A stretch of 64,000 nt of DNA from Squalus acanthias (Eukaryota). Positions within the stretch are counted from its first letter, which is position 1; each line of letters starts with the position of its first letter. Location: NCBI GenBank assembly GCA_030390025.1, contig CM059431.1, positions 147,622,001 to 147,686,000 of the forward strand. Direction: 5' to 3'. A model generated the notes under the pieces. That model was not told the DNA's origin, ran no database searches, and saw only the letters and a list, made by a program, of their open reading frames with translations. The position numbers and the translations under genes are program-made. This document shows, piece after piece, positions 14,731 through 38,500 of the stretch.

Positions 14731-15480
14731 ACTTGTGTCCCCCAGTGCATATACCAACAGTACTGCAAAACTGATCATTAATTGTGTCCAAGCAGTACCT
14801 ATACCACCATTGCTGCAAAACTGGTCAGTACTTGTGTCCCAGCAGTAGGTGTTCCACCAGTGCTGTAAAAGTAGAGTCATCGCCATAAGTGTTGGGTCAC
14901 CGTCAGTGCAACAAGAGTGGGGCCTCGAACAGGAATAGAATCAGCTATAGCAGTGGAAGAGCATTGTCACCTCTGGCACAACTGTAGGCACCCTATTACT
15001 GGAGGAGCAGGGTCACATCTCGTTCAGTGGAGGGGTACCACTAGTATATTACAAGCAAGATCACCACTGGTGTAAGTTTATGGAAGCACCAGTACCGGAC
15101 GACCAGGTTCACCACTAGTTTAAGTACAGGGCCACCACTAATGCTGGAGGAGGACGGTCACCTCTCCTGTAAATGTAGATTGCTACCTGGACCGAAGGTG
15201 CACTTTCTCCACTAGTGTAAGTGTAGTGGTTCCACTAGCACAGGAGCAGCACGCTCACGTCTAGTCTAAGTGTAGGTGTACTACATATACAGAAGGAACA
15301 CCGTTACTTTTAATGCTGCAGGATTGTGGTCATCACCAATATTGAACGATTTGGTTCACCGCATGTTCTGGATGAGTTGGAGCACTAGGATTGATTCAAG
15401 CGCAGGGCCAGGGTGTGAAGTGCAAGGGGAGCTGCCTTCACTGCTCCAGGGGAAGAGGGTCAGCACCAGTACTGGGAGAT
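14731..15480 (+). repeat. Degenerate ~48-bp minisatellite upstream of GPCR copy 1
   Basis: Recurring CCACTAGTGTAAGTGTAG / GGAGGAGCA motifs; reverse complement of the repeat at 39911-40355. Confidence 0.65.
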
Positions 15481-15559
15481 TACACTTTTTACTCGCAAAG
15501 AATGTTTTTGGAAAATTTCCAAGCACAATTTAAAACAATTATCTTAATCTGACGTATGA

Positions 15560-15744
15560 GACAAAAAAAACAACTTGCCTGAGCCTATTTGTTAAATGAC
15601 TGTAACTAATGTTAATTATGATTTAACCTGCTTGACTCGCTGGAGGATTGATGTGTGGATAAATATAGGTTCCCTTCCATTGCCTCAGCCGTGCGCCAGT
15701 CAGAGACTTTCAGCTCCTACAGAATTCATCAATTCTCACAGAAA
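15560..15744 (+). promoter_or_regulatory. Proximal promoter/5' UTR of GPCR copy 1
   Basis: Aligns with 35027-35210 (minus); TAAT-rich block and TATA-like GATAAATATAGG about 85 nt before ATG. Confidence 0.6.
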
Positions 15745-15814
15745 ATGGGGCGACCAACTATTCTGCTGATAAAAGAGATTTACTACCCGATTGTCACAGC
15801 TGTCGGTGTCCCCG
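15745..15814 (+). CDS. gpr139-like: GPR139-like GPCR copy 1, exon 1 (MGRPTILLIKEIYYPIVTAVGVP, phase-1 donor)
   Basis: ATG at 15745, 70 nt, then GTGAGC; same exon in copy 2; YY...GxP-A start of TM1 as in GPR139. Confidence 0.85.
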
Positions 15815-16254
15815 GTGAGCCATTTTAACCTGTTTATTGTCAATCGGCGTTAACTGTGTCCTTCTTCTTTCTGCCTGTTGGTTAAGGTAACGCGTTCTCC
15901 GATGTCAGCATTACACAGTCAACAGTGACTCGACCTACTAATGAACCGCCTGCCCACAGTTCCGTGTTCCCTTAATATGAACAAGTTAATGATGTTACAA
16001 TGTTCTTTGAAGCTCCAAACAATAATTTTAGTGCATTTCCGGACCGTCTTGTTCCTCCGTGCAGAGTGAGCGCTGCAGCAGCTCATTAAAATGTGTGGGT
16101 GGGTTTCCCAGGTAATGGCTCCAAAACTAATCTGTTCTCACACTGCTCCGTGTGGATAATCACACTGAATGGAATAAAATGCTCTCCCAGGTATCTCCAT
16201 ATATATGTCAATCAGACACTTGAACATTATTTCTCTCCTCTCTCTTTCTTTAAG

Positions 16255-17159
16255 CAAAGTTGCTGACAATTGTGATTCTCTCCCGAGGAAACTGCGGCCT
16301 TTCCAAGTGTATCTCTGTCTACATGGTGGCCATGGCAACAGCAGATCTACTGGTCATGATCTTCAATGTAATGGTGTATTATACTCTCAGTTATCACTTT
16401 CCACTTTCATTCCTGTCCCACACTCCCGTGTGTCGGGTCATTCTATACATGGGTATTATCACATTAGATTTGTCGGTTTGGTTCTCCTTCACATTTGATC
16501 GATTTGTAGCTCTCTGCTACCAGAAGTTTAAAGCAAGGTATTGGACTGCGCGATCTGCGGCCGCGGTTATAACAACGTTCTCTGTTTTGAGTTGTTTTAA
16601 GGATATTCCCGTTTTGTTTGTATATAAACCTCAGCAAATAATTAACAAGGTGCAGTGGGGCTGCGGGTCAAGTGTGCCATTTTTTTCATCACCTCCACGT
16701 GTAGCTTACGTCTGGTTTCACAGCGCCTGGGTTGTTTGGCGTCCTTTTACTTTAATCGCCTTGTTTAATACTTTAACGGTCCGACGTATTTTAGTGGCCA
16801 GCAGAGCCCGCAGGAGACTCCGGGGTCACAGGAGTGAGAATCACGGCGATCCAGAGACGGAGAACCGAAGGAAATCCTGTATTTTACTCTTCACTATTTC
16901 GGGCAGTTTTATACTATTGTGGCTGACAGCTGCCGTGAGTTTTGTATCTACCAGACTGACAAACCCTACTAATTACCGAGGCGACCGCACAAATCCTGGA
17001 TATATCGCCACTGAAACCGGAGCTCTGCTGAAGTTTTTGAGTTGCCTTCAAAACCCGTGCATTTATGCAGCGACCCAGAGGAAATTCAGGGAAGAGCTGA
17101 AGAATGTGGTGAAATATCCCTGGACCCTGATTCTGAGATTAGTTAGAAAATGCGGATAA
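16255..17159 (+). CDS. gpr139-like: GPR139-like class A GPCR copy 1, exon 2 (about 324 aa spliced; possibly decaying)
   Basis: Pyrimidine tract and AG at 16253-16254; 7TM pattern TIVILS, AMATADL, FTFDRF, RRKS..LLF, NPCIYAATQRKFR. Confidence 0.88.
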
Positions 17160-17339
17160 AATGAATCAAGTCAATCGAAAGCGTCTTTGTAACTGAAGCT
17201 CAATTTCAACTGTTCTTCTATCGCATAACGTCCATTTTCTGGTAAAGTAAAAATTGGGAGACTTCTTGTGTAAACATGTTTTCCATTTTGTAGCATACAT
17301 TTGATATTGGCATTGCTTTAGTTTTCACGCTCATGTCAG

Positions 17340-18385
17340 AAAGGAAGTGAATTTCTTGAGAGTGTTCGGGATAATTTTCTGCAACAATATGTTCTACAAC
17401 CAACAATGGGGAATGCCGAATTGGAATGAATGATGAGTAATGAGCCACATTTATTTAGCAGCCTAACGGTGCGTGAACATTTATCCAATAGCGATCGTAA
17501 CATGATCGCGAAACAGCTAAGATGCTAGAATTAGGTAAGGCCGACTTCAATGCTATGAGGCAGAGACTGTCCAGAGTAAACTGCGTAATTCTGTTAATGG
17601 GTAAAACGACAGAAGATCAGTGGGAGGTGTTCCAAAAATAATTTAATGTGATGCAGATCAGTTTATACCTCTAAGAGACAACTTGCCAATAAGTCTTGGG
17701 GGTCTGAGGAGGTAAGGGACAACCTAAATAAAAGCAAACACATATAAAATGCAAAAACTGGCTCAGATCCTGGCAACTGGGAGAGGTACAAAGAACAGCA
17801 AAATGTGACAGGGCGAGGGACGTTGAAGGCAAATTATCGATATGGTTAAGAAAGTGGCTGAGCGGCAGGAGACAGACAGTAAGGATAATGAAGAGATATT
17901 CTAACTGGCAGGATGTGAAAAGTGGTGTCGTGCAAGGATCTTTTTTGGGGCCTCAAATTTTCACCATATTTATTAACGACTGATATGACGGGACAGAAAG
18001 CAAAATACCCACGTTTGCCGATGTTACAAAGTTAGGTGGCATTGCAAGTAGTGTAGATGCAAGCATAAAATTACAAGGGCTATTAATAGATTTAGCGAAT
18101 GGGCAAAACTGTGGCTAATGTATTTCAATGTAGGCAATTGTGAGGTCTTCCACTTTGGACCTAAAAAGGATAGGACAGAGTAAGTTCTAAATGGTGAAAA
18201 GCTAGAAGCAGTGGAGATCGAAAGATACTTGTGGGTCCTGGTGCATAGCTCATTAAAATGCCATGGACAGGAACAGAAAATAATCAGAAAGGCGAACAGA
18301 ATGCTGTCCTTTATATCCAGAGGTCTACAATTAAAGGGGGTAGAACTTATGCGCAGATATACAAAGCCCTGGTTAGACCACTGAG
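17340..18385 (+). mobile_element. Old CR1 ORF2 remnant with internal deletions
   Basis: Degenerate SGVxQGS.LGP, FAD and AAAGCCCTGGTTAGACCAC segments. Confidence 0.75.
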
Positions 18386-18765
18386 CCCGGAATGCCATTG
18401 TTGTGTCTGAAGCCGGTGCCGAGGTCGATGCCGTGTGGTCCTTCTGGTTTTATTCTTATTATTGTTTCTTGTAGCGGTTTTTTACAACTGTGTTGATTGC
18501 TAGGCTATTTCAGAGGGCAGTTAAGAGTCAACTACATTGCCGTGGTGCTGGCGTCACATATAGACCAGACCAGGTAAGGACAGCAGGTTTCCTTCCCTAA
18601 ACCAGATTGCTTTTACGACAATCCGGCAGTTTCATGGTCAGAATTACTGATAGTAGCTTTTTAAATCCAGATTTATTGAACTAAATTAAATTAAATTCCC
18701 CAGCTGCCATGTTGGGGTTTGTACTCCCATCTCCAGATTATTAGCCCAGGCCTCTCGATTACTAG
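18386..18765 (-). mobile_element. Putative tRNA-headed SINE or LINE 5' fragment inserted into CR1
   Basis: Non-CR1 block interrupting the CR1; degenerate B-box-like GAGTACAAACCCC on minus near 18713-18725; family assignment from recollection only. Confidence 0.45.
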
Positions 18766-18769
18766 GTCA

Positions 18770-19050
18770 ACTGTAAAAAAATAGAGCCAGGCCTTTCAGG
18801 AACTAAATTAGGACACACCTCTGAACACAAAGGGTAGTAGAAGTTTGGAGCTCTCTTCCGCAAGCAGAAGTTGATGCTGGATCAAGTGTTAACTTTAAAC
18901 CTGAGATTGATAGATTTTTGTTAACCAAAGGTATTAAGGGATATGGGGCAAAGGCGGGTATATGGATTTAGATCGCAGATCAACCACGATCTCATTGAAA
19001 GGCAGATCATGCTTGAGGGGCTAAATGGCCTACTCCTGTTCATATGTTCC
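18770..19050 (+). mobile_element. CR1 3' end (continuation of the 17340-18385 copy)
   Basis: Tail GATCAACCACGATCTCATTGAA...GGCCTACTCCTGTTCATATGTTCC. Confidence 0.8.
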
Positions 19051-19744
19051 GATGATTTATTTGCTGAGTTTTCATAACCTATTCCTGCAAATTTAGCACA
19101 TTTCAAGTTCAGGGATCAAAGATAACAATGATGAGGTTCAGCAGAGGATTCGGACGTGTGGGCAACAGAGGATCCACCTTACACTGCAGGTACTGGGATC
19201 AGGCGCGCCACTTTCAAATCAATAAAATTTAATTCGGTGCCGAAACATTCAAAGGTCTTGCGATCGCCGATATTGGTAACTTTCCTGGAAGTTTGGTGTG
19301 TATATTGCAGGCGCGGGTCTCTCTGTCAGACTCCATTCCTCATTGACAAATAGAGCGGGCTTTTGTCACGTGATCAGTTGTTCGCATGGAGGAAACAGGC
19401 GGAACTCGGATCATCGATGTAACCTTTCACCTCTTTTGTCCCAGATACTGACAGAAAATCTCAATTGTGCGCTGACTGGTGTCTCTCACTCAGCACAAAG
19501 ATGGACTTGTTTTGCGCTGTCGATAAAAGTTTCCTGAGTAATATTATTGGTATTCTGTCTCAATCAGTCTAAATAGTAAAGAAATGTAAAATGAATGCTT
19601 ATTCATAAAGTTATTAATTATTACATTTGCTGCAAGTTATCTGTAAAAAAACACTTCCAGAGATTCAGATAAAACAAAACAGATATTATGTATTCTGTGG
19701 TTGGCTGAACATTTGCAGACGTTCAGAAATAATCTTTAGTAATT

Positions 19745-20830
19745 ATAGAAACAGAACATTGAAAAATAGGAGCAGGAGTAGGCCATTCGGCCCTTCTAGC
19801 CTGTTCCGCCAATCAATATGTTCATGGCTGATCCTCTATCTGAATTCCCTATTCCCGCTCTCTACCTGTACCCCTTGATGCCTTTTGTGTTTAGAAATCT
19901 ACCTACCCCCTTCTTAAATATATTCAGTGACTTGGCCTCACAGCTGTATGTGGTCGAGAATTCCACAGGTTCACCACCCTCTGAGTGAAGAAATTTCTCC
20001 TCATCTCAATCCTAAATGTCCTACCATTGAGACTGTGACTCCTGAGACTGTGACCCCTCGTTCCAGACTCCCCAGTGAGGGGAAACATCCTCCCTATATC
20101 CAGTTTGTCTTGCACTGTCAGAACTGTATACGTATCCACGAGTTAACCTCTCATTCTTATAAACTCTAGTGAATACAGGCCTAGTCGACCCAATCTCTCC
20201 ATCCTACCACAGTCCTGCAATCACAGGAATCAGCCTTCGCGGCACTCCCTCTATGGCAAGTATATCCTTTCTTAGGTAAGGAGACCAAAACTGCACACAG
20301 TACCTCAGGTGTGGTCTCACCAAGACCCTGTATAACTGCAGTAAGACATCCTTGCTCAAGTACTCAAATCCTCTTGCAATGAAGGCCAACATGCCATTTG
20401 CCTTCCTAACTGCTTGCTGCACCTGCATGATTGCTTTCAGTGACTGGTGTACAAGGACACCCAGGTCCCTTTCTGCATCAATATTTCCCAATCTATCACC
20501 AGTTAAATAATAATCTGCCTTTCTGTTTTTCCAACCGAAGTAGATAACTTCACAATTATCCACGTTATACTGCATCTGCCATGTATTTGCCCACTCACTC
20601 AACTTGTCTCAATCGCCTTGAAGCCTCTTTGCATCCTCCTCACAACTCACAATCTCACATAGTTTTGTGTCGTCAGCAAACTTGTACATATTATATTTGG
20701 TTCCCTCATTCAAATCATTGATATATATTGTGAATAGCTGGGGCTCAAGCACTGTTCCCTGCGGTACTCCACTAGTCACCGCCTGCCACCCCGAAAAAGA
20801 CCCTTTTATTCATACTTTCTGTTTCCTGTT
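19745..20830 (-). mobile_element. 5'-truncated CR1 LINE (RT C-terminus and tail)
   Basis: ORFs 20204-20602 and 19924-20139; tail AGGAGCAGGAGTAGGCCATTCGGCCC. Confidence 0.92.
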
Positions 20831-21029
20831 CCTACTCTCTTTTTACCGTTTTATTATGCGGTTGCGTATTGTTCCAAATAATAATTGAAAAATACCAGCA
20901 AATTTGAATCAGTTACAAATTGTTCATCGGTGATCTCGCCTGATTGTGCAAGAAACACCAAGGAATGGGAGCAGAGTCTCAATGTGAAGAAGCTGAAGGG
21001 TGCGGGTGAACAGCGAGCGTTGGGGATGC

Positions 21030-21690
21030 ACATAATCAATTCATAGAAAGTGTGTTTTCAGGTGGATAAGTCCATGAGAATCCAACAGAAATTGGAGTTT
21101 TATAGACGTAGGCATAGATCACAAGAGTAAACAAGTGATGATGAATCATTGCAAAACACTGATGAGGCCACCATTAGAACATCAGGTGCAGCTTCGGCCC
21201 CTCATTGTGGAAAGGCGATTAAATCCACTGAGAGCGGGCAGTGTAGATACATCAGAATAGTGCCATGGATCAGGACTCTACTGGTGATGAGGGGCATGAT
21301 ATTGGGACTGTTTGCACTGGAGTAGCGAAAGCTAAGAGGAGATTTAATGCAGGTTTTAAGAATTATGAACGGTTTTGGCATAGTAAAGAGGGAGAGATCA
21401 TTCCAACTAGTTGGAGAGCGAGCAATAAAGGGTGATCGACTTAAAATGGCCACAAAGGGAATGAGCAGAGAGATTAGCGGTAACATTTTTATGTAAGGGT
21501 TGCTGGAGCATGGAATGTGTTGCCTCAGATAATATTTAAGGGGAAATTAGGTGAATATTTGAAGCAGAGAAAATAAATGTCTGTGGAGAGAGAGGAGGAC
21601 AGTGCAGATAGTTTTTGCTTGCTGTATCAAATAACCCAGTACAGAGAGAATGGGTCAAATGACCTACTCCCACCCAATACATTTCTATGG
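21030..21690 (+). mobile_element. Old CR1 3' fragment
   Basis: Degenerate RPxLExxVQ and RGDL segments, tail-like ATGGGTCAAATGACCTACTCC. Confidence 0.6.
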
Positions 21691-22099
21691 TTTTAAAGTG
21701 TTTCGTACGTTGGTATGATTTTCATTTTTTTGGGGTTTCTAAGATACCCTCATCCCCTTTATGATTCTGTTAAACAAAATATTATAAATTAACCGGTAAC
21801 AAGGAAGAACCCAAAGGTTCAATAGTCACCCGTCCCTTACTGGTTCCCATTTGTCGATAACCTACTTTCATTTTGTAATGAGCTGTCTGTGCAGTGCCAG
21901 ATCTCCCACCCATCCCATAATTCCTCACCGTTTGTAGATGTGGAACCTTGTCCACTGATTGGTTAAAATCCTACTGTGTCATTCTAACTGCATTTCCCCT
22001 GCCCTACAGGCCAGTGATGTGTTTCAGAAACTCCAGCAGCTAAGTTAAAGATGACACATCGTCCCTCAAACCAATATAATTCCCTTTTACATTGCTCCT

Positions 22100-22700
22100 C
22101 TCCCAGGTGCTCACCCACGAGATCTCATGGGCCGCACCAACCAATAAAAGAACGGAATCCCCATTCATACTTATGGGAGTTCGAAACAACAGAATCCCCA
22201 TAAGTATGAATGGCGATCACTTAATAAATACACGAACACATGAAAAAAATGAAAATAAATTACATATTTAAAATTAATTAAAATACCATTTAATCAAATA
22301 TTTTAAACAAAAATTTAATTTTTTGAAAAATATTAACGGGGCTAAAAATAATTTTCCCTTATCGGACAGGGTTTTTATTGCATAAGTGAGTAAAAATATA
22401 TATTTTTCTATATTTGATAACTCTTATGCTGGTAAAAGCATTATGGCAGATGCTCCGAATTTACCTGGAGGTCCGGGAGGTACAGAAAGCATCATGCATG
22501 CTTTTACCAGGCAAAAGAATTTCACGGGCATTCAGTGGGCGGACGATGGGCAAATAGTGCTACTCTCGCCCGCGGAGGCCCTTTTCCCGGGGATGCAGAG
22601 GATCCGCAAAGAAAATTCTTCACAGATCCCAGGTCTTTCATTTGCTGTGGGCAAGGGCCCGCCCGAAACCTCACATCCGGGACACTCCAGTCGAACCCTG
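22100..22700. mobile_element. Hairpin-rich non-autonomous element fragment (MITE-like)
   Basis: Perfect inverted repeats 22161-22177/22197-22213 and 22429-22441/22498-22510 around an AT-rich core; architecture like 50020-50762; termini not identified. Confidence 0.5.
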
Positions 22701-24176
22701 ATCTCTTTCTTGCTCAGTTTAGAAGATTATTCTTTAATTTTCTTTCGTATAATTTACAAGTTAAGAATCAGCAAAGTACATTTTAAATATGTTGACAAAT
22801 TCCCCTTTATATAAGGATCCAATCTCTTCATTTAAAGATTTTATCGAATCGCTGTTGATATCATTTCACCGATCCGTATTTAAAAGCTGAAAACAAAATA
22901 CTTCTGACATTTTATAAATTCAAGTGGAGCCTTCTCCGTCTATTTTGTTTGACTCTTCCCGCTCTCTTTCTCTTCATAGCCCCACTCTCCTGCTTCAATT
23001 TCTTTCTGTCAGATCCCGCACTCTGCCAGATCCCAGTCCCACAGGTTCCCGCACTCTGCCAGTTCCCGATGTCCCCTTTGTTGGAGAATGGCCCCTCGTT
23101 TATCAGAGGGATAAAATTCAAATCAATCTATTATTGTTCTCACAAGGATTGTTGGGTTTACCTCATTTCGACTGTGTGGACAATTCTGGCAACCTAATCA
23201 TAAAAATGACATTTCTGCACTTTATAGGTCACACAGCTCAGTATCAGAGATGCCAGGGATTCACAATTCCAGCTTTGAAGAAATTATAGAAAATCCTGCT
23301 TTCTATCTTTAGAAAAGAGGAAACCTCCAGCTGATCTAATGTCAGTTTTAATGTTACAAGAGAATGCACAAATTACCCAAATTCCTCACTGTATCAACGA
23401 GTTCAATCATAAAGATCTACAGGTTTAAAATGTGAAATTAAAAGTTAGACGGGAAGCCGGGCCGAACATTTCAGCTCACTGGTTAACTGTATTCTGTATG
23501 TTATTTACTGAATTACCAGGGGGGTCATTCGGTACAAACCAATTTATCTGCTTCTTAAGTTGACAACTATGTTATGGAAAGTTTATCACATGACAAATAT
23601 CAGCTTCTGTAAACAAACTGCAACATCGATGTGCTGCGTAACACAGGCAAAGGTAAACTGATGAACTTCAATCTGAGGAGTTTAACAAACAAGATATACA
23701 ATGAAAAAAGCAAGAAAATTATCTTGAAAGAAGGGAAGATTATCAAAATGTATACCTTTAAGTGTAATACTCCTGCCATTATATTTACTGCAGTTTATGA
23801 GGCAATAATAGGAACTCTATTATTTAACGTTATTTTGTTAAGTTGTCGATTTATCCTAATCATCCTCACAGTTGTTAATGGGATAGTCAGTGGTGCCTGT
23901 CCCGACCGTAACAAATCCAAAGCTTGCGACCCAGTTATATGCACTCGATTGAAGTACAAACAGAGGAATTCGCTGTGTTATGTAGAAGGGGCCCCTACAC
24001 AGCATCAAATGCACGGAATCTCCTATGTTGCGAATCCAAATATTTTCCCACGTCGTGGAGATCCCATTGTCGAAAAGCTGGATTTTATTATCCTGAAAGA
24101 TATATACTGAGGAAGAAGATGAATCCTTCATTCACTCCTTTAGCTCCTCACTAAGGAATTGGACTAAAGAGAAGTA

Positions 24177-24304
24177 GGGTCGGGGTTATGCTGCATTCCA
24201 GAATTGAGAGTTAAACGGATTGGTTGCACTAATAAGCTACAGCATTCTGGGAATTGTAGTCCACCCGTGACAGAGACACTAACTGAACTGGTGCATTATG
24301 GGAG
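24177..24304. promoter_or_regulatory. ZNF143/Staf sites plus CCAAT box (orphan promoter-like site)
   Basis: Minus strand ACTACAATTCCCAGAATGC (24242-24260) and CTCCCATAATGCAC (24291-24304); ATTGG at 24219-24223. Confidence 0.6.
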
Positions 24305-24819
24305 ACCGGCTGAGATTTTTGATTCTGAAAGTTGAGCAAAGTATAAGGATCCGGCTTCAAAAAGAGATATGCCGTTGGGGTGAAACTACAGGATGCATTT
24401 CTCACAGATACTTGCGGATAAACTCAATATGTTTAGTTTCAATTCCAATTTTAAACGATTTTTTAATGAATTTATTACCTTTACTAATGATTGGATATGG
24501 TGCGTGATGCGCTTCAATTGAACTACTAGCAATAATAAAAAATAATTGCTAAAGTTTTCTGACTGATTCAAATTTCTCTTAAAGGAAATGACCCTTACTT
24601 AAATGTTAGTGCTAATTAATGAGAATGGTCTTGTGGAGGGTTCACGTGAATTTGTGCCTTTTTCTTCAGTCTGAGCTCTTCACTCTGAGCCCACGTCTCC
24701 CAAAGGTAGTTCAAGATTCCATATCCGCTCCCAAGAATCGGTATCTCCGCTTTCCTAGTGCAGAATTTGTTAAATTTTACACCCTACACTGCGACTGACT
24801 GCGAACAATGGCACGGGGA

Positions 24820-26090
24820 TCATAGAACCATAGAATCCTATAATTATACAGTGCAGAAGGAGGCCATTTGGCCCACGCTGCCTGTGCCGGCTCTTTGAAA
24901 CAGATAACCAATTAGTCCCATTCCTCTGCTACTTTAAAACAATATTTTACCTCATCTCCCCGCTGGTTTTTGTGTCAATTATCTTAAATCTGTGTCCTCT
25001 GGTTACCGAGCAAACTGCCGCTGAAAACAATTTCGTCGAATTTACTTTATCATAACCCTGCCTCATTTTATTCAGTTTGGTGCTCCACTGAATTATTTAC
25101 CTAACAATTACCTTAAGCATTCTTTTTTTTTGTTATCAATTTTGAATTCAATTGTGGCTTCAATTTCGCTAACAGGTCTATCATGTAGTACTTTGTAAAA
25201 CGCCTTTTGAAAGTCCATATACACAACATCAACTGCACTATCCTCATCAACCCTCCCAGTTATTTCATGAAAGGACTCGATCAATTTAGTAAAACATGAT
25301 TCCCCTTTAAAATATCCGTGCTGGCTTTCATTGATTAACCCACATTTTCCAAGTGCCAATTATGTTTCTGTCGGATTATTGTCTCTAAATGCTTCTGCAC
25401 GACGTTAGGCTGACTGGCCTGTAGTTGCTAGAGTATTCCTCTTTTTTGAACGGGGGTTAATATTTGTTATCCACTGTTACCCTGGCAGCACTCTGATATC
25501 TAGGGAGGACTGGATGATTTTGTGACGCCAGAGCCTCTGCAATTTCAATCCTTACTTCCCTCAGCTACCGCGGATACAGCCCCTTTGGAACAGGTGACTT
25601 TTGTACTTTGAGCGCTACCGACCTTTTCAGTACCTAATTTCTATTTATGTTTTTCCGATCCAATTTCTATGCTATCGCCTCCTTTACTGTAACATTGGCA
25701 GCATCCTTTTCTTTCGTGAAGACACATGCAAAGTATTCATTTAGTATCGAAGCCATGCCCCTGCCTGCAGAAGAAAATTTCCTTTTTCGTCTGTAATCGG
25801 CCCCATCCTTGAGATTGCCACGTTCCAGGACGATCCCTGCACCAGCTCCGTCTTCGCAACCTGCCGATGGCGACCAACATACTATCCTCCTGAACTCTCT
25901 GTGGCGGTGGGGTGACCACCTCCTGGAACATGTGATCGAGCAAATTATCAGCAACGCAGTGACTCCAGCCGCTCCTCAAGCTCAGAAACTCTGAGCTTAA
26001 GTTCGAGAAGATGGAGGCACTTCATGGACACGTGATTATCATGGAGAGGTGAAGCGCCCTGGAGTTCCAACATGTCACAGGAATATCCAC
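24820..26090 (-). mobile_element. Rearranged CR1 remnants (tail, RT pieces, ORF1 piece)
   Basis: 25108-25359 (VVYMDFQKAF), 25667-25790 (LNEYFACVFTKE), ORF1-like FQEVVTP near 25900-25940. Confidence 0.75.
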
Positions 26091-26193
26091 TGTTGTTGTC
26101 AATGTAAATTGCAGCATTTAAATTCAACAGTGACAGAAATCACGATGGACGCTAAAAGAGATTTTGAAAATAAAATCCCATTAAATTAAATTT

Positions 26194-29100
26194 AACATTT
26201 ACTGTTACTGTTTACTTTTTAAAATCTAAATTTCCAGCCTTAAGCAGGGTTTTAAAGTGATATACAAGGCCTACAATTCAGAGCAGCTGAAGGCAGTTAA
26301 TTAGGGAAACTATTTTCTTTGTTTCAGGGCCTATAAAAACAAGCTTTGCAGTGCGATTTGCACTGAGTGCGGTTTGAACAGAGTGCTGCGAGTTGGGTGA
26401 GTCAGAGAGTCTTAACTGTTTGCTAAAATCAAACATTTCTTTTTTCACATTTACAGTTACTGTTTACTGTTTAAAATCTAACATTTAGCCAGCCTTAAGC
26501 ATGGTTATCAAGGATTATACAAGGTCTACAATTCAGAGCAGCTGAAGGCTGCTAATTAGGGAAACTAGATAAAACTGGTTCTACTGTAGCAGGGCTCAGC
26601 AAGTCCTTTGTTTCAGGGCCTATAAAAACAAGCTTTGCATTGCGATTTCCACGAAGTGCGGTTTGAACAGAGTCCTGCGAGTTGGGTGAGTCAGGGAGTT
26701 AGCTGCAGAGTGGAAGGAGGTGATTCCTTGCTTCACCTTTGCTTTAACTAACTGTTCACCTGTAGGAATTGGTTATTACTTTACACCAAGGAAAGAGTCC
26801 GAAAGCAGGTGCAGTCAAACAACAACTGTGAAACCGCTAAAGTGACGTCACAACCAGGGAAGGAGCTGATTGGTAAGTAGGAACTGGTGAGCATTTGTAC
26901 AGTCCAGTCGTTAAAGTAAAATTAAGTTCTCTAGTTTAGAGTAAGTCGTTTTTAAAGTGAAGTAAGGATCGTCGAGTATTTAATATTCTTTAATTTAAAA
27001 AATGTAAAGGGAGTAAATATAGGGTAATAAATGGCAGGGCAGCTCAGCTGCGTGAAGTGCTCCTCCTGTGCTATGTGGGAAGTCAGGGACACGTTTGGTG
27101 TTCAGGGCGGACACGTTCGGTGTTCAGGGCGAACACGTGTGCAGGAAGTGTCTCCAGCTGCAGCTACTCGAAATCCGCGTTTCAGAGCTGGAGCTGCGGC
27201 TGGAGTCACGGTGGAGCATCTGCGAGGCTGAGATCTTCGTGGATAGCACGTTTAACGGGGTGGTCACACCGCAGGTAAAGAGTGCACAGGCAGACAGGGA
27301 ATGTGTGACCTCTAGACAGAGTAAAAGAACTAGGAAGGTAGTGCAGGAGTCCCCTGGGTCCAACTCCCTCTCCAACAGATTTTCCGTTTTGGATACTGCT
27401 GGGAGAGATGGTTTCTCAGTGGAATGCAGCAACAGTGAAGTCCATGTCACTACGAGTGTCTCAGCTGCCCAGGAGGGGAGGAAATAGAGTGGGAGAGCAA
27501 TTGTGTTAGGGGATACTATCGTAAGGGGAACAGGTAGACCGTTTCTGTGGCCGCAGACGTGACTCCAGATGGTATGTTGCCTCCCTGGTGCCAGGGTCAA
27601 GGATGTCACTGAGCGGCTGCAGGACATTCTCAAGGTGGAGGGTGAACAGCCAGAGGTCGTGGTACGTTTTGGTACCAACGAAATAGGTAGAAAGAGGGAC
27701 GAGTTCATGCAAGCAGAATATAGGGAGCTAGAAAATAAATTAAAAAGCAGGACCTCAAAGTTAGTAATCTCTTGATTACTCCCAGTGCCACGTGCTAGCG
27801 AGATCAGCAATAGTAAAATAGACCAGATGAATGTGTGGCTGGAGAGATGGTTAGGAGGGAGGGATTTATATTCCTAAGGCATTGGGACCATCTGGGGATG
27901 GTGTGACCTGTACAAGCTGGACGGGTTACACCTCGGCAGAAGCGGGACCAATATCCTCGCAGGGAGTGTTGCTGGTGCTGTTGGGAAGGATTTAAACCAG
28001 TTTGTCAGGGTGCTGGGAACCTAAGTGTGTGCACAGAACGGAGAGAAACACACCTGGAAGTGCAAGTTAGTAATTTAGTCAGCAAAACTAGCAGGGAGCA
28101 TAAACAAAGGCAACAGTAAAAAGGGTCAAAGTGCAGAAAAGTATTTAACAGGCAAAGTTCAAGGCACTTTTTCTAAATGCACGTAGCTGTAGCAACAGGA
28201 TGGTTGCATGAATGGAAATAATAGAAGTAAATGGGTATGGCATAATTGCCATTACAGATAATTGGTTGCAGGGTAACCAAAGCTGGGAACTGAATGTTCC
28301 AGGGTACTCAACAATTAGAAAGTACAGACAAAAAGGAAAAGGAGGTGGCATAGCGCTGTTAATAAGGGATGAGATCGGTACTGTAGAGATAAAAGATCTT
28401 GGCTTGGCAGATCGTGATGTAGAACTGGAATCAGTTTGGGTGGAGCTAAGAAACAGCAAAGGGCAGAAAACATTGCTGGGAGTTGCGTATAGGCCACCAA
28501 ACAGTAGTGCTAATGTAGGGCACAGTATCAATCAAAAAATTAGAAGTGCATGTAACAAGGGCAATAGGGTAATCATGGGGGCTTTAATCTAAATATTGAC
28601 TGGGCAAATCAAATTACCACTAATGGTGTGGAGGACGAATTATTGGAATGCATGCCAGATGGTTTCCTGTATCAGTATTTGGAGGAACCAATCAGGGTAC
28701 AGGCTATTCTGGATCTAGTGCTGTGTAATGAGAAAGGGCTAATCAATAATCTTGTGGTAAAGGGGCCTTTAGGGACATGTGACCAGAGTATGATTGAATT
28801 TTACATTAAGTTTGAGAGTGATGTAGTGCAATCTGAAACAAAGGTCTTCAATATAAACAGAGGAAACTACACGTGTATGAGGGACCAGTTGGCCATGGTA
28901 GATTGGGAGACTACACTAAAAGGTATGAAGGTGGACATACAATGTCTAACATTCAAGGAAATAATGCATAATTTGCAACAAACATATAATCCTCAACGGC
29001 ATAAAAATTCAAAATGAAAAGTGATCCAACCATGGCTAACAAAAGAAATTAAAGCTAGTATTAAGTCAAAGGAGGAAGCTTATGAAGTTGCCAGAAAAAA

Positions 29101-31062
29101 TGGCCAGCCTGAGGATTGGGATCTTTTGAGAAATCAGCAAATGGGAAACGAGAAATTGATAAAGAAATGGAAAATGGAATATGAGCACAAATTAGCGAAA
29201 AATATAAAAACAGATTGTAAAAGCTTCTATAGGTATGTGAAAAGGAAAAGACTGGCGAAGGTAAATGTAGGTCCTTTACAGTCAGAGACGGGAGAATTTA
29301 TAATGGTGAATGAGGAAGTGGCCAATAAATTAAATAAATACTTTGTTTATGTCTTCACGGAGGAAGACAAAAAAAAACTCCCAGAAATATGAGAAAACCA
29401 AGGGTGTGACGAGAATGAGGAATTAAAGAAATTATTATTAGTAAAAAAAAAGTACTAGCAAAATTATTGGGACTAAAAGTCGATAAATCCCAAGGACCGG
29501 TGACCTACATCCTAAGGTGTTGAAAGAGGTGGCCATTGGGATAGTGGACGCGTTGGTTGTCATCTTCCAAAATTCTATAGATTCTGCAACGGTTCCTGCA
29601 GATTGGAGGATAGCAAATGTAACCCCGCTATTTAAGAAAGGAGGGTGAGAGAAAACGGAGAACTACAGACCTGTTAGCCTCACATCAGAAGTTGGGAAAA
29701 TGCTGGAATCTATTATAAAGGATTCAATAACTGGACACTTAGAAACTAATAGTAAGATTGGGCAGCATAGATTTAATAATGAGAAGTCATGTTTGACAAA
29801 CCTATTGGAGTTCTTTGAGGATGTAACTAGTGTAGTAGAGAAAGGGGAACCGATAGATGTGGTGTACCTGGATTTTCAGAAGGCCATTGATAAGATCCCA
29901 CACAAGAGGTTGATGAACAAAATTAGGGCACATGGAATTGGGGGTAATATACTAGCATGGATTGAGAATTGGTTAACAGACAGAAAACAAAGTGTAGGGA
30001 TAAACGGGTCTTTTTCAGAATGGCAGGCTGTGATTAGTGGGGTACTGCAAGGATCAGTGCTTGGGCCCCAGCTATTCACAATCTATATCAATGATTTGGA
30101 TGAGGGGAATAAATGTAACATTTCCAAATTTGCTGATGACACAAAGCTAGGTGTAAGTGTCAGTTGCAAAGAGGATGTGAAGAGGCTTCCAGGGGATATC
30201 GGCAGGCTCAGTGAGTGGGCGAGAACATGGCAGATGGAATATAATGTGGTTAAATGTGAAGTTTTCCACTTTGTTAGAAAAAACAGAAAGGCAGTGTATT
30301 TCCTAAATGGTGAAAGATTGGGGAATGCAGAAGCTCAAAGGACCTGGGTGTCCTTGTACATGAGTCAGTGAAAGTGAATCTGCAGGTGCAGCAAGCCATT
30401 AGGAAGGCAAGTGGTATGCTGGCCTTCATTACAAGAGGATTTGAGTACAGGAGTAAAGAAGTCTTACTCCAATTATACAGGGCCTTCATGAGACTACACC
30501 TGGAGTACTGTGTACAATTGTGGTCTCCTTATCTGAGGAAGAATATAGCTGCCATAGAGGGAGTGCAACGAAGGTTTACGAGATTGATTCCTGGGATGGC
30601 GGGACTGTCGTATGAGAAGAGATTGAGTAAACTAACCTGTATTCTCTTGAATTCAGAAGTTTGAGAGGGGATCTTATTGAAGCATACAAAATTATTACAG
30701 GGCTTGATAGGATGGATGCTGGGAGAATGTTTCCCTTAACTGGGGAGTCTAGAAACAGGGGCCACAGCATCAGGACAAAGGGTAGGCCATTCAGGACTGA
30801 GAGGAGAAGAATTTTTTTCACAAAGAGGGAGGTGAATCTTTGGAATTTTCTGCCCCAGAGGGCTGTGGAGGCTCAATCATTGGGTATATTCAAAACAGAA
30901 GTCAATAAATTTCTGACTGGTAAAGGCATGAGGGGAATATGGAGATAGGGCCGGTGAATGGAGTTGAGGCAGAAGATCAGCCATGATCTTATTGAATGTT
31001 GGAGCATCCTCGAAGGGCCGAATTGCCTACTTCTGCTCCTATTTCATATGTTCTCATGTTCT
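26194..31062 (+). mobile_element. Near full-length degenerate CR1 LINE (5' UTR, ORF1 zinc finger plus esterase, endonuclease, RT, tail)
   Basis: MAGQLSCVKCSSCAMWE (27031), HVCRKC, CCLPGARVKDV (27569), endonuclease 28212-29017, RT 29700-30948 with FADDTK, tail ending ATGTTCTCATGTTCTT. Confidence 0.93.
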
Positions 31063-33620
31063 TAAATTAAACGAAAGTTCATAAAACTAAATTTAATTTG
31101 AAATAAATGAAATTAAATTTAATTTATTGCATTTAATTAAATCTAGTTTATTATATAGCACTTTAGGCATGACAGTTTTAATATCCGAGTTGCATTGCCC
31201 AGTGATATTTGTTGCAATTCTCGTGTTCTTTGCTTGTAGAGTTGTAGAATGAACTGATATCCCGAGGCTGACGGACTTGGTGTTGGGTTTTACTCCCCTA
31301 ACTTGGTGGTCCGGCGGAATTCCGGGACTGGGGAAAATGACATCTGGTCACTGAGAAAGCCGAAGCATTCTGACACAGACACTGATCGGCGGCAGCATTT
31401 CCTGTTCTAAGACAATCCGACTGTGACCTCATTTCCTGTGGCCATTCGTGAAGAGCGCCACAGTCTGGAGTCGGGGGCTCCTGATGACGTAGCGAGTGCT
31501 TCAAAAGTGGACCTGGTTCGTCACACTTCTGATACTAACAGGCAATGAGTGCAACGCTCAGCCGATTCTGTGACGTGTCACCAATTATATTCAGGAGCTC
31601 CTGCATCTTTCACTCCTCGCAGTTTGTATATTCAGTAGTTTTATTTGACATTTGCAGTTCAAGGATAATAAATAAATCACGAATATTTATGCCTACTGTT
31701 TTTTCGGGATAATTAGACTTGTGGACATCAACTCTGGGCATTGATTTTCTTCCCATTAATGTAACATAAGATGTATTTAATTCCGGTTGTGGTAAGGATC
31801 CTTTTACATTCTTCTAGCATTGAGTGGAACAAGAGACAGATTCCGATGTTAAGGGCGGCCGTCAGCCTCTGGACGGAGCTCTGTAATTATCCACTAACAT
31901 TCTACAACCACAAAACTCTCTGCACTGTTAAACAAACACATCCAACGCGATCATCGTGTTCCGACATGTCGATACGCGATGGAGAACTTCGCGTGTGTTA
32001 CACCCCAACTTTTTAAGCCTTTCTTTCGACACGATTATGCAATAATGTTTTAATAACATTTAAATCTGTTACTGAGTCTAAGTATTTAGGAGAGACTAGG
32101 TTTCATCTACAAGAAATAAAAACGGACCCACAATCCAAATACTGGCACTGGAAATTCGGCGAGGTGTATGACTGGCGGACAGTCCGCTCCAGCCAGATTT
32201 CCGCCCAGGCCGAAATTGAAAATGACCTTAGATACAGAATATTCAGATTCCACTAATCCCAAATGGACTGATAACTACAGGCATGCAGTAGATGGAAGAC
32301 ACCACGATAAAAATACAATCCGACTGGGCGAAAAAAATGCATGAAAGCCAATCAGTTTAACATTAATGTAAACCAACAGAGCAATTAATATCTGCGGCGC
32401 CCATCAATCGCCGAAGATGTGTAAAGATGGAGCTGACACAGCGCTGCCTTGTTTACATGTGTAACCCGGTACACTGAATAGAACAGCGGAAGCAGTCAGA
32501 GACATTCCTCTGACTTTCTTACACATCCTGCAGTGTGAACAGTGGATTTACCCAGTTGGAGGGTCAGCTTCGCTTCGAAATCTTCCAACCTGCAACACAT
32601 GTACTGCAGAATAAATTGGAAAACAGTTTCAACCGAGGCACTGAAATTAGCGGGCGGACAAAATGCTAGTTAATTGGCTCGAATCCTCATCTGAAGGATT
32701 TGCACCGAGAAACGCTCTCAAACTCAGGTCCCCAGTGGTGCTGGACGGTTCTATGAATACACCGCCTTGGACTGGCGATACCCGTTCAATGCCAGTTGGT
32801 AAAAGGGACGAGGTCATACACGGCACTGTCTGTGCACCAACACACATCGCGGATTATTCCATGTAAATATCTGAGAGTCCTGTTTACTGATCCTTGCCTG
32901 AAATGCCCCGATTATAAATTCGTATTTCTTACACTGTGTTAACAGCTTACAGGTTCGCTGATTCACATTAATAACACGCAGATTCACCATGATACATTTA
33001 GTAACAGCAAGTAACAACTTTATTTAATGTTGCTGAACAGACTTTCTATAATCGAGACGTCAGAAAAAAAAGTAAAACGAGGCAACTCCAGTAATCATTC
33101 AAAAAGTGGTGTAACATCGCAGCACTGTGAAGGGGCCAGCGGCACCGCTCCTTATTCCCAGCAGAAGGGGTGAAGCAGCCCTTGCAGCTGCAAACAGTCC
33201 AAGCAACATGTTCACCAAATCTGCGAGAAAAAGTAAGGGACAGGGAGTTGTAAACGACTAAATCTATCCCTAAATCTGGTGACTGATCCAGTCAATATAT
33301 GATAGAATTAAATTACAGTCCTCGCAGAATCAGATATTAAACCCGTTGATCAACTGTTATATTCCACTATTAAATTTCACTTAATCACTGACATTTTTCA
33401 TACTTAAGGGGGAATGACCTTGTTTGGGAGGAGTCACTCGGCCAAAGAACTGCAGAAACCCACAGTCCTTGTTGGCGTTAAATGCGACCAAGGGCCCCAA
33501 ATATAGTCGCGTACCTGTGAGTTTTTACAAGAACAATCCTTATGTAGCGGTTAGCAGAGAGAATCTCAGTCTAAGCTGGAACACGAGCTAGAACGGAATT
33601 CTAATGTCCCAATCGAATCT

Positions 33621-34540
33621 CTAGTTCGGCTTTCTTTCATGTTTAACCAATCTCAGCATCAGTGTCCAGGGAGATTTCACCACCTTCTTCAGCTCTTCTC
33701 TGAACTTCCTCTGGGTCGCTGCATAAATACACGTGTTCGTACAGGAACTCAAAAGCTTCAGCATGGCTCCGGTTTCAGTGGCGATATAGGCTGGGTTTGT
33801 GCGGTCGCCTCGGTAATAATTGACGTTTGTCATTCTGGTAATTAAAAAATTCACGGCAGTTGTCAGCCACAGCAATATAAAACTGCCCGATATAGCGAAG
33901 AGCAAAATGATGGATTTCCTTCGGCTCTCAATCGCTGGATCGCTCTGATTCTCACAGCTCTGACCCCGGAGACCCCTGCGGGCTCTGCTGGCCATTAATA
34001 AACGTCTGACTGTAAAACAATTACACAAGGCCATTAAGGTAAAGGGAAGCCAAACGAGCCATATGCTGTGAAACCAGAGATACGCTACACCTGGAGGGGA
34101 GGGAAAAAAAGCTACACTTGACCGACAGCCCCACTGCACGTGGTTAATTATTTGCTGAGATTCATATGCAAACAAAATGGCAATGCCCTTTAAAAAGACC
34201 AGGAACGTGAACGCTGTTATAACCGCGGCCGCAGTTCTCTCGGTGCAATATTTTACTTTATACTTCCGGCAGCAGATAACTATAAAACGGTCAAATGTGA
34301 AGGAGACGGTGAACCAAACAGACACATCGAAGGTGACAGCATTCATGTATAGAATGACCTTACACACGGGAGTGTGGGACAGGAATGAAAGTGGAAAGTG
34401 ATAATTGAAAATATAATACACCATTACATTGATGATCATGACCAGTAGATCTGCTGTTGCCATGGCCACCATGTAGACAGAGATACACTTGGAAAGGCCG
34501 CAGTTTCTTCGGGAGAGAATCACAATTGTCACCAAGTTCG
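33621..34540 (-). CDS. gpr139-like: GPR139-like class A GPCR copy 2, exon 2 (about 329 aa spliced, looks intact)
   Basis: TTTCTTACAG acceptor at 34541; (A)NLVTIVILS, AMATADL, SVWFTVSFTFDRF, KYCT, RRKSIILLF, NTCIYAATQRKFR. Confidence 0.92.
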
Positions 34541-34956
34541 CTGTAAGAAAGAGAGAGGAGAGAAATGATGTTCCAGTGTCTGATTGTAATATATATAGAT
34601 ATTGAGATTATTTTACTCCATTCAGTGTGATTATCAACACGGAGCAGTGTGAGAACAGGATTAGTATTGGAGCCATTACCTGGGAAACCCAGCCACACAT
34701 TTTAATGAGCTGCTGCAGCGCTCACTCTGCACGGGGGGACAAGACGGTCTAGAAATCCGCTAAAATCCTTGTGTTGGAGCTACAAAGAAGATTGTAACAT
34801 CAGTAATGTTATCATAACAAGGGCAACTGGGAAAGTGCGGACGCGCGGTTCACAATGTCATGCTGACACCTGTAAAACAGTTACCATATCCAACATGCGA
34901 CATGAACAGTGAGACGGTTAACACCGATTAACAACAAAGAGGTTACAATGGCTCAC

Positions 34957-35026
34957 CGGGGACACCGAAAGCTGCGAGAATGGGGTAGTAAATCTCTTTT
35001 ATCAGCAGTATATCTGGTCGCCCCAT
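34957..35026 (-). CDS. gpr139-like: GPR139-like GPCR copy 2, exon 1 (MGRPDILLIKEIYYPILAAFGVP)
   Basis: 70-nt exon followed by GTGAGC; phase 1 joins exon 2 to give GVPANLVTI. Confidence 0.88.
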
Positions 35027-35210
35027 TTCCAGTGAGAATGGATGAATTCTGTAGGAGATGAAAGACTCTGACTGGCGCACGGCTGAGACAATAGAGGGGA
35101 ACCTATATTTATCCACACATCTATCCGCCAGGGAGTTAATCAAATTAACTCATAATTGGCATTAGTTACAGTCATTTAACAAATAGACTGAGGTAAGTTG
35201 TTTTTTTTTG
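35027..35210 (-). promoter_or_regulatory. Proximal promoter/5' UTR of GPCR copy 2
   Basis: Homologous to 15560-15744, including GATAAATATAGG and GACTGTAACTAATG. Confidence 0.6.
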
Positions 35211-35289
35211 AATGATTCGTCGGATTAAGAGAAATATGTGAAATTGTTATTGTACAGTTTCAAAAACACGCACAGTACAAACATTCTTT

Positions 35290-35558
35290 ACGAATGGAAA
35301 CTGGAATCACCCAACACTGGCGCTGACCCTATTCCAGCAGGACTGGTGGAAGCAGCTACACTGGCAGCCATCGGCCTGACCCAGCCCTTCACTGACTCCT
35401 AGTACACCAACACCTCCAGAACAGGCGGTGAAACAAATCCTCCAATATATGAAACTGTTCTGCAGCATTAGAGATGACCATGTTCTTCTGGTAATAGTAG
35501 CTCGCGACACTTACACTAGACGTGACCCTGCTCCTCCACTACTAGTGATAACCTACAC
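35290..35558 (-). repeat. Gene-proximal part of the 48-bp minisatellite region upstream of GPCR copy 2
   Basis: CTTACACTAGACGTGACCCTGCTCCTCCACTACTAGTGATAACCTACAC unit; aligns with 15230-15490. Confidence 0.6.
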
Positions 35559-38500
35559 AGAAACATAGAAACAAAGAATAATAGAAGCAGGAGTAGGCCC
35601 TTTGGCCCTTCGAGTCTGCTCCGCCATTCAGTATGATCATGGCTGATCCTCCATCTCAATTCCATATTCCCGCTCTCGCCCCATATCCCTTGATGCCTTT
35701 TGTGTCTAGAAATCTAGCTCCTTCTTAAATATATTCAGTGACTTGGCCTCCAAAGTCATCTGTGATAGACAATTCCACAGGTTCACCACCCTCTAACTGA
35801 AGAAATTTCTCCTCATCTCAGTTCTAAATGTCCTACCCCGTATCCTGAGACTATGAACCGTCGTTCTAAACTTCCCAGCCAGGGAAACATCCACCTTGCA
35901 TCCAGTCTGTCTAGCCCGGTCAGAATTTTATACGTTTCAATGAGATCCCCCTCTCATTCTTCTAAACTCTAGTGAATGGAGGCCTAGTCGATCCAATCTC
36001 TCCTCATACGACAGTCCATCCGAGGAATCAATCCGGTGAACGTTCGCTGCATTCCATGCATGGCAAGTATATCCTTTCTTAGGTAAGGAGACCAAAACTG
36101 CACGCAGTACTCCAGGTGTGGTCTCACTGTGGTAAAACATCCTTGCTCCTGTCTCAAATCCTCTTGAATAAAGGCCAACATACCATTTGCCTTCCTAACT
36201 GTTTGCTGCACCTGTATGTTTGCTTTCAGTGACTGGTGTACAAGGACAACCAGATCTCTTTGTACATCAACATTTACCAATCTATCAACATTTAAATAAT
36301 ACCCTTCCTTTCTGTTTTTCCTACCGAAGTGGATAACTTCACATTTATCCACGTTATACTGCATCTGTCATGTATTTGCCACTCACTGATCCCTGCGGTA
36401 CCCCACTAGTCACCATCTGCTACTCTCTGTTTCCTGTCTGTTAAACAATTTCCAATCCATGCCAGTATATTAGCCCCAATCCCATGTGCTTTAATTTTGC
36501 ACACTAACCTCTTATGCGGGATTTTTTCAAAGGACTTCTGAAAATCCAAATACACCACATCCACTGGTTCTCCCTTATCTATTCTATCAGTTACATACTC
36601 AAAAAACTCCAGTTGGTTTTTCAAATACGATTTCCCTTTTCATAAATCCATGCTGACTTTGTCGACTCCCGTTGAAAATGTCTAAGTGTCCTGTTATCAA
36701 ATTCTTTATAATAGACTCTAGCATTTTCCCTAGTACTGACGTTAAGCTAACCGGTCTGCAGCTCCCTGTTTTCGCCCTCGCTCCTTTTTTAAATAGTGGG
36801 GTTACATTTGCCACTCTCCAATCTACAGGAACAGTTCCATAATCTATAGCATTTTGGAAGATGACAACCAATGCGTCCACTGTTTTCATGGCTATGTCTT
36901 TTAGTACTCTGTGATGCAGATTATCAGGCCCGGGGAATTTATCGGCTTTCAGTCCCATTAATTTCTCCAGCAATATTTTTTTACTAATACTAATTTCCTT
37001 TAATTCCTCCTTCTCACTCGACCCTTTGTCCCTTAGATTTAATTGGGAAGTTATTTGGGACCTCTACCGTGAAGACAGAGCCAAAGTATTTGTTTAATTG
37101 CTCTGCCATTTCCTTGTTCCCCATTATAAATTCTCCCATTTCTGACTGTAAGAGACCTACATTTGTCTTTACTAATCTTTTTCATTTTACATCCTTGCAG
37201 AAGCGTTTACTTTCCGCTTTTATGTGCCTCGTCAGTTTACTATAATACTCTTTTTCCCCTCTTAATCAATCTCTTGGCCTGTTTTTTCTGAACTCTAAAC
37301 TGCTCCCAATCCTCAGGCTTGCTACTTTTTCTGGCAACTTTATATGACTCCTCTTTGGATCTAATACAATCTTTAACTTTTTTGTTAGCAATGGTTGGGC
37401 CGCTTTCCCTTTAGTGTCTTTGCGCCAGAAAGAAATGTATAGTTGTTGCAATTCAAACATTCGTTCCTTAAATGTTAACCATTGTCTATCCACTATCATG
37501 CCTTTTAATGAAGCACCCCAATCTATAATAGCCAACTCCCTCCTCTTACCTTCGTGGTTTCCTTTGTTTTGATTTAGGACCCTAGTTTCGGATTGGACTA
37601 CTTCACTTTCCATCTTAATGAAGAATTCTTACATGTTATGGTCACTCTTCCCTAAAGGACACCGCAAAACAAGATCATTATTTAACCCCTTCCCATTGCA
37701 GAATGCCCAATCTTTGATAGTCTTTTCCCTGGTTGTCTCCTCAACGTACTGGTCTAAAAAAAACATCTCGTACACACTCCAGGAATTCATCCTCCACAGT
37801 ATTACTGCTAATTTGCTTTGGCCATTCTATATGTAGATTAAAGACACCCGTGATTACTGTAGTACACTTGTTGCATGCATTTCTAATTTCCTGTTTGATG
37901 CCGTCCACTACATTAAAGCTTCTGTTTGGAGGCCTATATACAACTCCCACCAATGTGTTCTGCCCCGTGGTGCTTCTTAGCTGCACACAGACTGATTCAA
38001 CATCTTGATTTTCTGAGCCAATATCCTTTCTCATTATTGCTCTGCTATCATCCTTTACGAACAACGCCACTGCACCTCCTTTACCTTTTTGCCTATCCTT
38101 CCTAAATATGGAATATCCTTGGATATTCAGCTCCGAGCCTTGGTCACTCAGCAGCCATGTCTCTGTAATTGCAATTAAATCGTATCCGTTTTCATCTATT
38201 TGTGCTGTTAATTCGTCTACCTTATTACGAATGCTTCGTGCATTCAGAAACAGTGCCTTTAGATTTGTATTTTTAACATTTTTAGACATCTTAACTATTT
38301 TTGAACTATGGCCCTATTTGTCTTACCATTTTTTCTTACCCGGATCCTATTTGTTAGTGCACTCTTTTGTTTATACGCTCTGTCCCTACCTGACACAATC
38401 TGGTTGTCCTTAGCCCAATCCATTTCCTGCACTACTTCCTTGTCTTTTCTCTTTAGCATTCTAGATTTCTCTCCACCGTGACCCCCCCCCCCTCACTTAC

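Follow-up and report, generated by a model that had tools for sequence, protein, structure and literature searches.

GPR139 is a class A G protein-coupled receptor (GPCR) encoded by a two-exon gene; its zebrafish orthologue is 70% identical to the human protein, and its ligand site comprises E108, F109, H187, W241, R244 and N271 (PMC7318219). Mutagenesis has identified four critical residues in this receptor, the equivalents of F3.33, W6.48 and N7.39 among them (PMC5430874). GPR139 and its relative GPR142 are reported to be sister to the protostome receptors for MIP, proctolin, FMRFamide and myosuppressin, whose ligands are aromatic-ended, and the wider GPR139-related group has been tied to aromatic ligands (PMC8557429). 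Orphan receptors of fishes that resemble GPR139 and GPR142 were named GPR210A and GPR210B by Rinne et al. 2019, whose available text refers to coelacanth, gar and other fishes and does not mention sharks (PMC6504862). In cartilaginous fishes a relative paucity of GPCRs has been reported (PMC8455134). Published surveys count 20–62 olfactory receptor genes in them (mean 43.8), a smaller chemoreceptor repertoire than in any other group of vertebrates (PMC10869828), and the keen nose of sharks has been explained by sensitivity rather than discrimination (PMC10116579). Here, we describe two receptor genes, A and B, found in a 64-kb window (the whole stretch of 64,000 nt analysed, from contig CM059431.1 of Squalus acanthias). 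They belong to a very large GPR139-related family of cartilaginous fishes in which the predicted ligand pocket is hypervariable.

A GPR139-related receptor family across cartilaginous fishes

Genes A and B lie in convergent orientation, 16.5 kb apart. An earlier note on this DNA had read them as a convergent pair of two-exon receptor genes with a 70-nt first exon and a phase-1 intron of about 420–440 nt; this architecture is confirmed, with the intron length holding for gene A (440 nt) and being slightly overstated for gene B (416 nt). The parts of the two genes are as follows:

15745..15814, + strand: gene A exon 1 (N-terminus and most of transmembrane helix 1, TM1), 70 nt, ATG at 15745; same N-terminus in database gene models
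15815..16254, + strand: gene A intron, phase 1, 440 nt, GT-AG, acceptor AAG
16255..17159, + strand: gene A exon 2, from the last part of TM1 through helix 8 to the stop codon; frame open
34957..35026, − strand: gene B exon 1, 70 nt, ATG at 35026
34541..34956, − strand: gene B intron, phase 1, 416 nt, GT...CAG; matching skip in one RNA-run contig
33621..34540, − strand: gene B exon 2, encoding an apparently intact class A receptor; AlphaFold2 model available

The exon-1 reading is backed by database gene models that share the N-terminus. It is also backed by a run from a related organism that may be RNA, in which one contig passes from 34541 to 34962 by way of four letters, so that the sequence skipped amounts to 416 nt net, the length of the gene B intron; this is a single contig of depth 3.4, from a paralogue at ≥80% likeness to gene B. 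The predicted proteins, of 324 aa (A) and 329 aa (B), share 236 identities over 329 columns (72%). Their N-termini are very short, as the earlier note had stated, with 24 residues ahead of position 1.50, a length shared by 85 of 120 database homologues. By profile and motifs, and for gene B also by predicted fold, the genes encode class A (rhodopsin-like) GPCRs. The proteins matched Pfam 7tm_1 at 69.6 and 72.2 bits (cutoff 30.5). Gene B has all of the motifs N1.50, D2.50, C3.25 with a Cys in extracellular loop 2 (ECL2), DRF, P5.50, W6.48 and NxxxY, while gene A lacks N1.50. An AlphaFold2 model of the gene B exon-2 product, computed from a 133-sequence alignment, reached a mean confidence score (pLDDT) of 92.9, compared with only 47.6 from the single sequence, and the fold search with this predicted structure returned class A peptide receptors at a TM-score of about 0.7.

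Among receptors with solved structures, to which this ranking is confined, the family profile matched human GPR139 (PDB 7vug, 9m42) best, with an E value of 6e-40 as against 4e-29 for NTSR1, the next match. In the fold search human GPR139 took rank 20; such searches confirm the class and cannot rank GPR139 against other peptide receptors. Identity to human GPR139 is 19% (phmmer E 3.4e-6), and A and B keep two of its six ligand-site residues, the His and the Trp (H5.43 and W6.48 equivalents), and three is the most that any of 174 family members retains. Orthology of A and B with GPR139 is rejected on these two grounds. The family is best described not as copies of GPR139 but as a branch that lies farther out within the GPR139-related group. 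Unlike GPR139 and GPR142, which are present once per genome and have a conserved pocket, it has many paralogues per genome and a variable one. The protostome receptors appeared here as outgroup matches at about 25% identity and differ in being invertebrate neuropeptide receptors.

A search with gene B exon 2 returned 1906 proteins at E≤1e-3 among 2924 candidates. The best 120 of these matches, each a separate 90%-identity cluster, are all from sharks (11 species, 59–76% identity), and 115 of the 120 bear the automatic name 'probable/putative GPR139'. Close paralogues among them number at least 33 in Pristiophorus, at least 29 in Heterodontus and at least 24 in Heptranchias. When 50%-identity representatives were searched exhaustively, 101 clusters reached E≤1e-30. 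The source was looked up for 18 representatives on the family side, and 17 come from cartilaginous fishes, among them the chimaera Callorhinchus and the batoids Mobula, Narcine, Hypanus and Leucoraja. Matches in the ESM Atlas were solely clusters named 'probable GPR139' or generic GPCR clusters. In two DNA runs of related organisms, 1532 and 1644 contigs lay on gene B at ≥80% likeness, covering its intron and upstream block as well; contig depth was not taken as copy number. Two possible RNA runs held 20 and 13 paralogue contigs, which are uninformative on tissue.

The tree of the 120 close homologues required 31 species-label changes, compared with 71 after shuffling, and contains species bursts such as one of 17 Heterodontus genes and one of 10 Pristiophorus genes; genes A and B sit in different subclades. 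The family is chondrichthyan-wide and very large, with many paralogues per genome and species-specific bursts. The homologue counts and the species-specific clades, together with the apparent decay of gene A described below, support the expansion by birth and death that had been proposed from the two genes. At least 24–33 close paralogues in each of three sharks, from one subclade alone, and about 100 clusters at 50% identity have been hidden under an automatic label. One Chiloscyllium member is modelled inside longer proteins, one of them labelled as RING-type domain-containing, which is probably a gene-model fusion.

Separation from the OR, TAAR, V1R and V2R families was also claimed in the earlier note and is supported. 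Only Pfam 7tm_1 matched A and B, the models 7tm_4, V1R, TAS2R and 7tm_3 giving no match at E≤0.1, and the homologue lists seen were without TAAR, a family that has no Pfam model of its own. Like the OR, TAAR, V1R/ORA, V2R/OlfC, T1R and T2R families, the present one combines many paralogues, species-specific bursts, dying copies, a variable pocket, a short N-terminus and a shared upstream block; it differs from them in its origin, in matching 7tm_1 only and in that its sensory role is inferred.

The nearest non-chondrichthyan relative is a gene of amphibians and sturgeon, likewise called 'probable GPR139' (Pleurodeles XP_069092602.1), which is 27–31% identical to gene B and has the short N-terminus, C3.25 and the ECL2 Cys in common with the family. 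Its 25 matches among 1675 candidates, four of them elasmobranch, comprise 20 amphibian clusters, each from another species, plus sturgeon; in contrast to the family, there is one cluster per species and the pocket is invariant. In an IQ-TREE analysis of 35 proteins, this gene and the family were joined at 99/98, and FastTree agreed on the joint clade. A second group (Latimeria XP_005988539.1 type) belongs to the wider GPR139-related group and formed a separate 100/100 clade with a conserved pocket. Its members come from sharks, coelacanth, ray-finned fishes, amphibians, turtles and squamates; mammals and birds are absent from the named entries of the 120 matches listed. It is possibly one of the GPR210A/B orphans. 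Both relatives match GPR139 best by profile, again among solved structures, and both appear to be single-copy. Two entries of the second group are annotated as TMEM183A isoforms, hinting at a genomic neighbour.

The amphibian gene keeps the F3.33, W6.48 and N7.39 of GPR139 in 20 of 20 sequences. Of the four residues whose mutation proved critical in GPR139 it thus retains three, which points to a probably aromatic ligand for the ancestor. As a single-copy sister gene, it would offer a laboratory handle, in Xenopus or axolotl, on the ancestral ligand and cell type. Its invariant pocket is charged (R2.61, D5.39, K6.51, K6.55, E6.58 and R7.35), and Ser1.50 and Asn2.50 replace the usual Asn and Asp.

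Ligand-pocket variability and the divergence of genes A and B

The six ligand-site positions of GPR139 were mapped via the phmmer alignment with GPR139 and compared with the other 65 extracellular-half positions of TM2, TM3, TM5, TM6 and TM7, with TM4, which has no anchor, left out. Across 120 close paralogues, mean entropy was 2.10 bits at the six site positions and 1.19 at the other 65 (permutation p=0.002), and the fraction of non-conservative differences was 0.54 as against 0.21 (p=0.0005). The same held for 54 divergent members (2.78 versus 2.10 bits; p=0.04). In both single-copy controls the relation was reversed: 0.00 versus 0.33 in the 20 amphibian orthologues, and 0.59 versus 0.92 in the second group (72 of 120 listed members), which was matched to the close set in overall TM identity (0.68 versus 0.65). 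A 14-position core, a set written after the column table had been seen and therefore descriptive only, gave distinct strings in 116 of 120 paralogues, in 1 of 20 amphibian sequences and in 38 of 72 members of the second control, with the excess present within each of four species.

The signalling core is near-fixed. R3.50 is found in 174 of 174 members, N5.58, W6.48, N7.49 and Y7.53 are almost invariant, and P6.50 and P7.50 are mostly Thr across the family. Pocket hypervariability in the family, set against conservation in the single-copy controls, is the signature of a ligand-diversified repertoire. An opsin-like Lys in TM7 was considered and rejected, since it lies one position off 7.43 and occurs in only 81 of 120 sequences.

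The earlier note had inferred variable pocket helices from genes A and B themselves, whose divergence it saw as concentrated in TM3–TM5. This region is indeed more divergent than the remainder (78 of 121 versus 158 of 199 positions identical; Fisher p=0.004), but intracellular loop 3 is similarly divergent (16 of 26 identical), and synonymous divergence (dS) varies in step, being 0.05 in aa 1–82 and 0.42 in TM3–TM5. Silent changes are scarcer in aa 1–82 (3 of 66) than elsewhere (28 of 157; p=0.01). Since silent sites diverge likewise, the pairwise argument is no evidence of selection on the pocket, and positive selection between A and B in TM3–TM5 is rejected at a ratio of nonsynonymous to synonymous divergence (dN/dS) of 0.49 (0.6 overall). 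Support for variable pocket positions comes from the family-wide entropy test and its reversed controls.

One tract stands out in the comparison of the two genes:

16033..16432, + strand: A–B high-identity tract covering the 3' half of the intron and TM1–TM2, 88–96% identical over 400 nt

The best 300-column identity between A and B was 0.937, against a null maximum of 0.917, and the tract likely reflects gene conversion or constraint. Much of the coding sequence is less conserved between the two genes than the 3' half of the intron (16033–16254 in A; 34541–34780 in B), which, unlike the 5' half, is also common to many paralogues in the two DNA runs. This 3' half may act as a regulatory element or mark a tract of gene conversion.

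Gene A is a candidate decaying copy. It has a Lys at 1.50 found in 0 of 109 homologues, an in-frame two-codon deletion in TM3 (0 of 120), an Arg at 5.49 inside TM5 (0 of 120), Gly174Arg (0 of 119) and Ile234Cys (0 of 120), besides the AAG splice acceptor. Because several of its changes occur in none of up to 120 homologues, gene A is probably dying and may have lost its function despite the open frame. Gene B too has rare residues, Pro144Ala (0 of 120) for one, though most of them are conservative, and it is likely functional.

Candidate functions of the family

We found no published description of the expansion; subscription papers were outside the search, and unseen supplements or preprints may list the genes. 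The family went unmentioned in a term search of the available text of the catshark, whale-shark and zebra-shark genome papers, and the term GPR139 was absent from the three supplementary files of the skate paper and from the 12 of 24 whale-shark files searched. It is likely that the family is undescribed and present in RefSeq under automatic names only. New here are the proposed sister gene in amphibians and sturgeon, a pocket test with controls, the finding that the pairwise argument does not hold, and the probable decay of gene A.

We lean, by a modest degree, towards the view that the family is a chemical-sensor repertoire, with external cues sensed by cells of the nose, taste organs, skin or gut. 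A single ancestral gene, apparently still single in amphibians and sturgeon, would have been its source, and growth would have proceeded by duplication of a cassette made up of satellite array, promoter, 70-nt exon, intron and large exon. Selection would then have diversified the pocket with G-protein coupling kept. The paralogues are predicted to differ in the small molecule or peptide that they bind, the most likely ligands being external cues for chemosensory cells of those four organs. The more specific proposal is tentative and, on balance, doubtful: that this is a seventh vertebrate chemoreceptor family, of hundreds of GPR139-related receptors derived from one aromatic-ligand ancestor, sparsely expressed in chemosensory cells of sharks and rays and outnumbering their known smell and taste receptors. 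If true, this proposal would upset the picture of cartilaginous fishes as smelling with no more than 20–62 receptors. The variable pocket of the family makes the puzzle of the small shark repertoire testable with existing RNA data.

Several points weigh against the chemosensory reading. Immunity and nociception, too, make use of large receptor families with variable pockets, such as the MRGPRs and FPRs. The excess at pocket positions weakens when the sets are widened, 11 positions from the literature giving p=0.05 and 0.11 and 30 pocket positions p=0.049 and 0.023; the column table was seen before any position set was fixed, sequences and columns are not independent, and the pairwise dN/dS of A and B is below 1 both overall and in TM3–TM5. 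Of the 1906 matches, the best 120 were taken as close paralogues. The 35-protein tree was built without true GPR139 and GPR142, and in only 27% of its bootstrap trees was the family monophyletic without the amphibian gene, one catshark protein falling outside. Finally, V2Rs in TRPC2/Go microvillous neurons already account, in principle, for the catshark olfactory neurons (PMC10116579).

The alternative that survives best, though we consider it unlikely, is an internal surveillance repertoire, in which leukocytes, mast-like cells or nociceptive neurons would sense microbial, parasite or damage molecules in the manner of MRGPRs and formyl-peptide receptors. Hypervariable pockets and evolution by birth and death would be expected under it as well, and it would fill a role left open by MAS1 and its relatives, which are reported absent from cartilaginous fishes (PMC8455134). 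No GPCR is reported among the 50 most specific genes of a catshark brain-plus-olfactory library, which also fits, but sparse receptors would be unexpected there anyway (PMC11979771). Against it, the relatives of known function are receptors of the neural or neuroendocrine kind, with aromatic amino acids or neuropeptides with aromatic ends as ligands (PMC8557429, PMC7318219). An immune or nociceptive family would still constitute a large unrecognized recognition system.

Detection of endogenous or social peptides, for instance reproductive signals in testis, sperm, oviducal gland or brain, with receptors co-evolving with variable ligands, seems improbable. The peptide-receptor fold of the predicted structure is compatible with it, as is the neuropeptide-receptor nature of the protostome relatives (PMC8557429), and the occurrence of some catshark V2Rs in testis and rectal gland indicates that expansion alone does not fix the organ (PMC11979771). 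However, receptors for endogenous ligands usually keep the pocket fixed, as both single-copy controls do. We know of no matching expanded ligand family.

Least probable of all is a largely non-adaptive origin, by unequal recombination of a satellite-flanked cassette in repeat-rich genomes with most copies drifting or dying: the window is LINE-rich and mostly self-repeated, a satellite array lies ahead of both genes, gene A looks degraded and the A–B comparison is a mosaic, yet drift would neither raise pocket variation above that of neighbouring helix positions nor keep R3.50, N5.58, W6.48 and Y7.53 near-fixed, and the family spans chimaera, rays and sharks with the overall A–B dN/dS at 0.6.

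Upstream blocks, repeats and the rest of the window

The duplicated unit reaches about 500 nt upstream of genes A and B and includes a conserved block; satellite-like sequence lies farther out:

15525..15744, + strand: conserved upstream block of gene A, TATA-like site 15660–15667; 86% identical to the gene B block
35027..35246, − strand: conserved upstream block of gene B, TATA-like site 35111–35104; common to many paralogues in the two DNA runs
14729..15480, + strand: degenerate satellite-like array upstream of gene A, periods 23–26 and about 50; lag-26 self-match 0.368 versus a shuffle maximum of 0.29; Tandem Repeats Finder (TRF) period 50
35300..35560, − strand: proximal array part upstream of gene B; lag-26 self-match 0.345 versus a shuffle maximum of 0.323
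39926..40350, − strand: distal array part of gene B, period 48; about 4.3 kb of long interspersed nuclear element (LINE) sequence lie between it and the proximal part

The TATA-like site lies 85 nt ahead of each ATG, and we infer that the blocks act as promoters. In each DNA run, 29–33 contigs differ at single listed sites in 35093–35122. LINE sequence at 35561–39900 splits the gene B array, leaving about 260 nt of array beside the putative promoter. A homeodomain 13-mer of olfactory enhancers was found at two mismatches in both introns and also in 10 other places of the window, and it is not counted as evidence; no O/E (EBF) site with fewer than two mismatches was seen by eye.

The window has a GC content of about 43%, is 64% self-repeated and is full of LINE fragments. 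No further protein-coding gene was recognized in it besides A and B, and tblastn found no third copy, weak matches near 56.9–57.2 kb (E 2–5) being disregarded. Between the genes, 20831–25177 is a 4.3-kb segment without self-repeats in which no gene was recognized and one open reading frame had no Pfam match. A weak tRNA match at 56135–56191 (31.5 bits, partial model) is perhaps the head of a tRNA-derived short interspersed nuclear element. A 67-bp satellite unit forms three arrays, at 44395–44944, 45865–46343 and 53101–53586, and a LINE reverse-transcriptase frame at 3673–5346, open over 557 codons, marks a relatively young copy.

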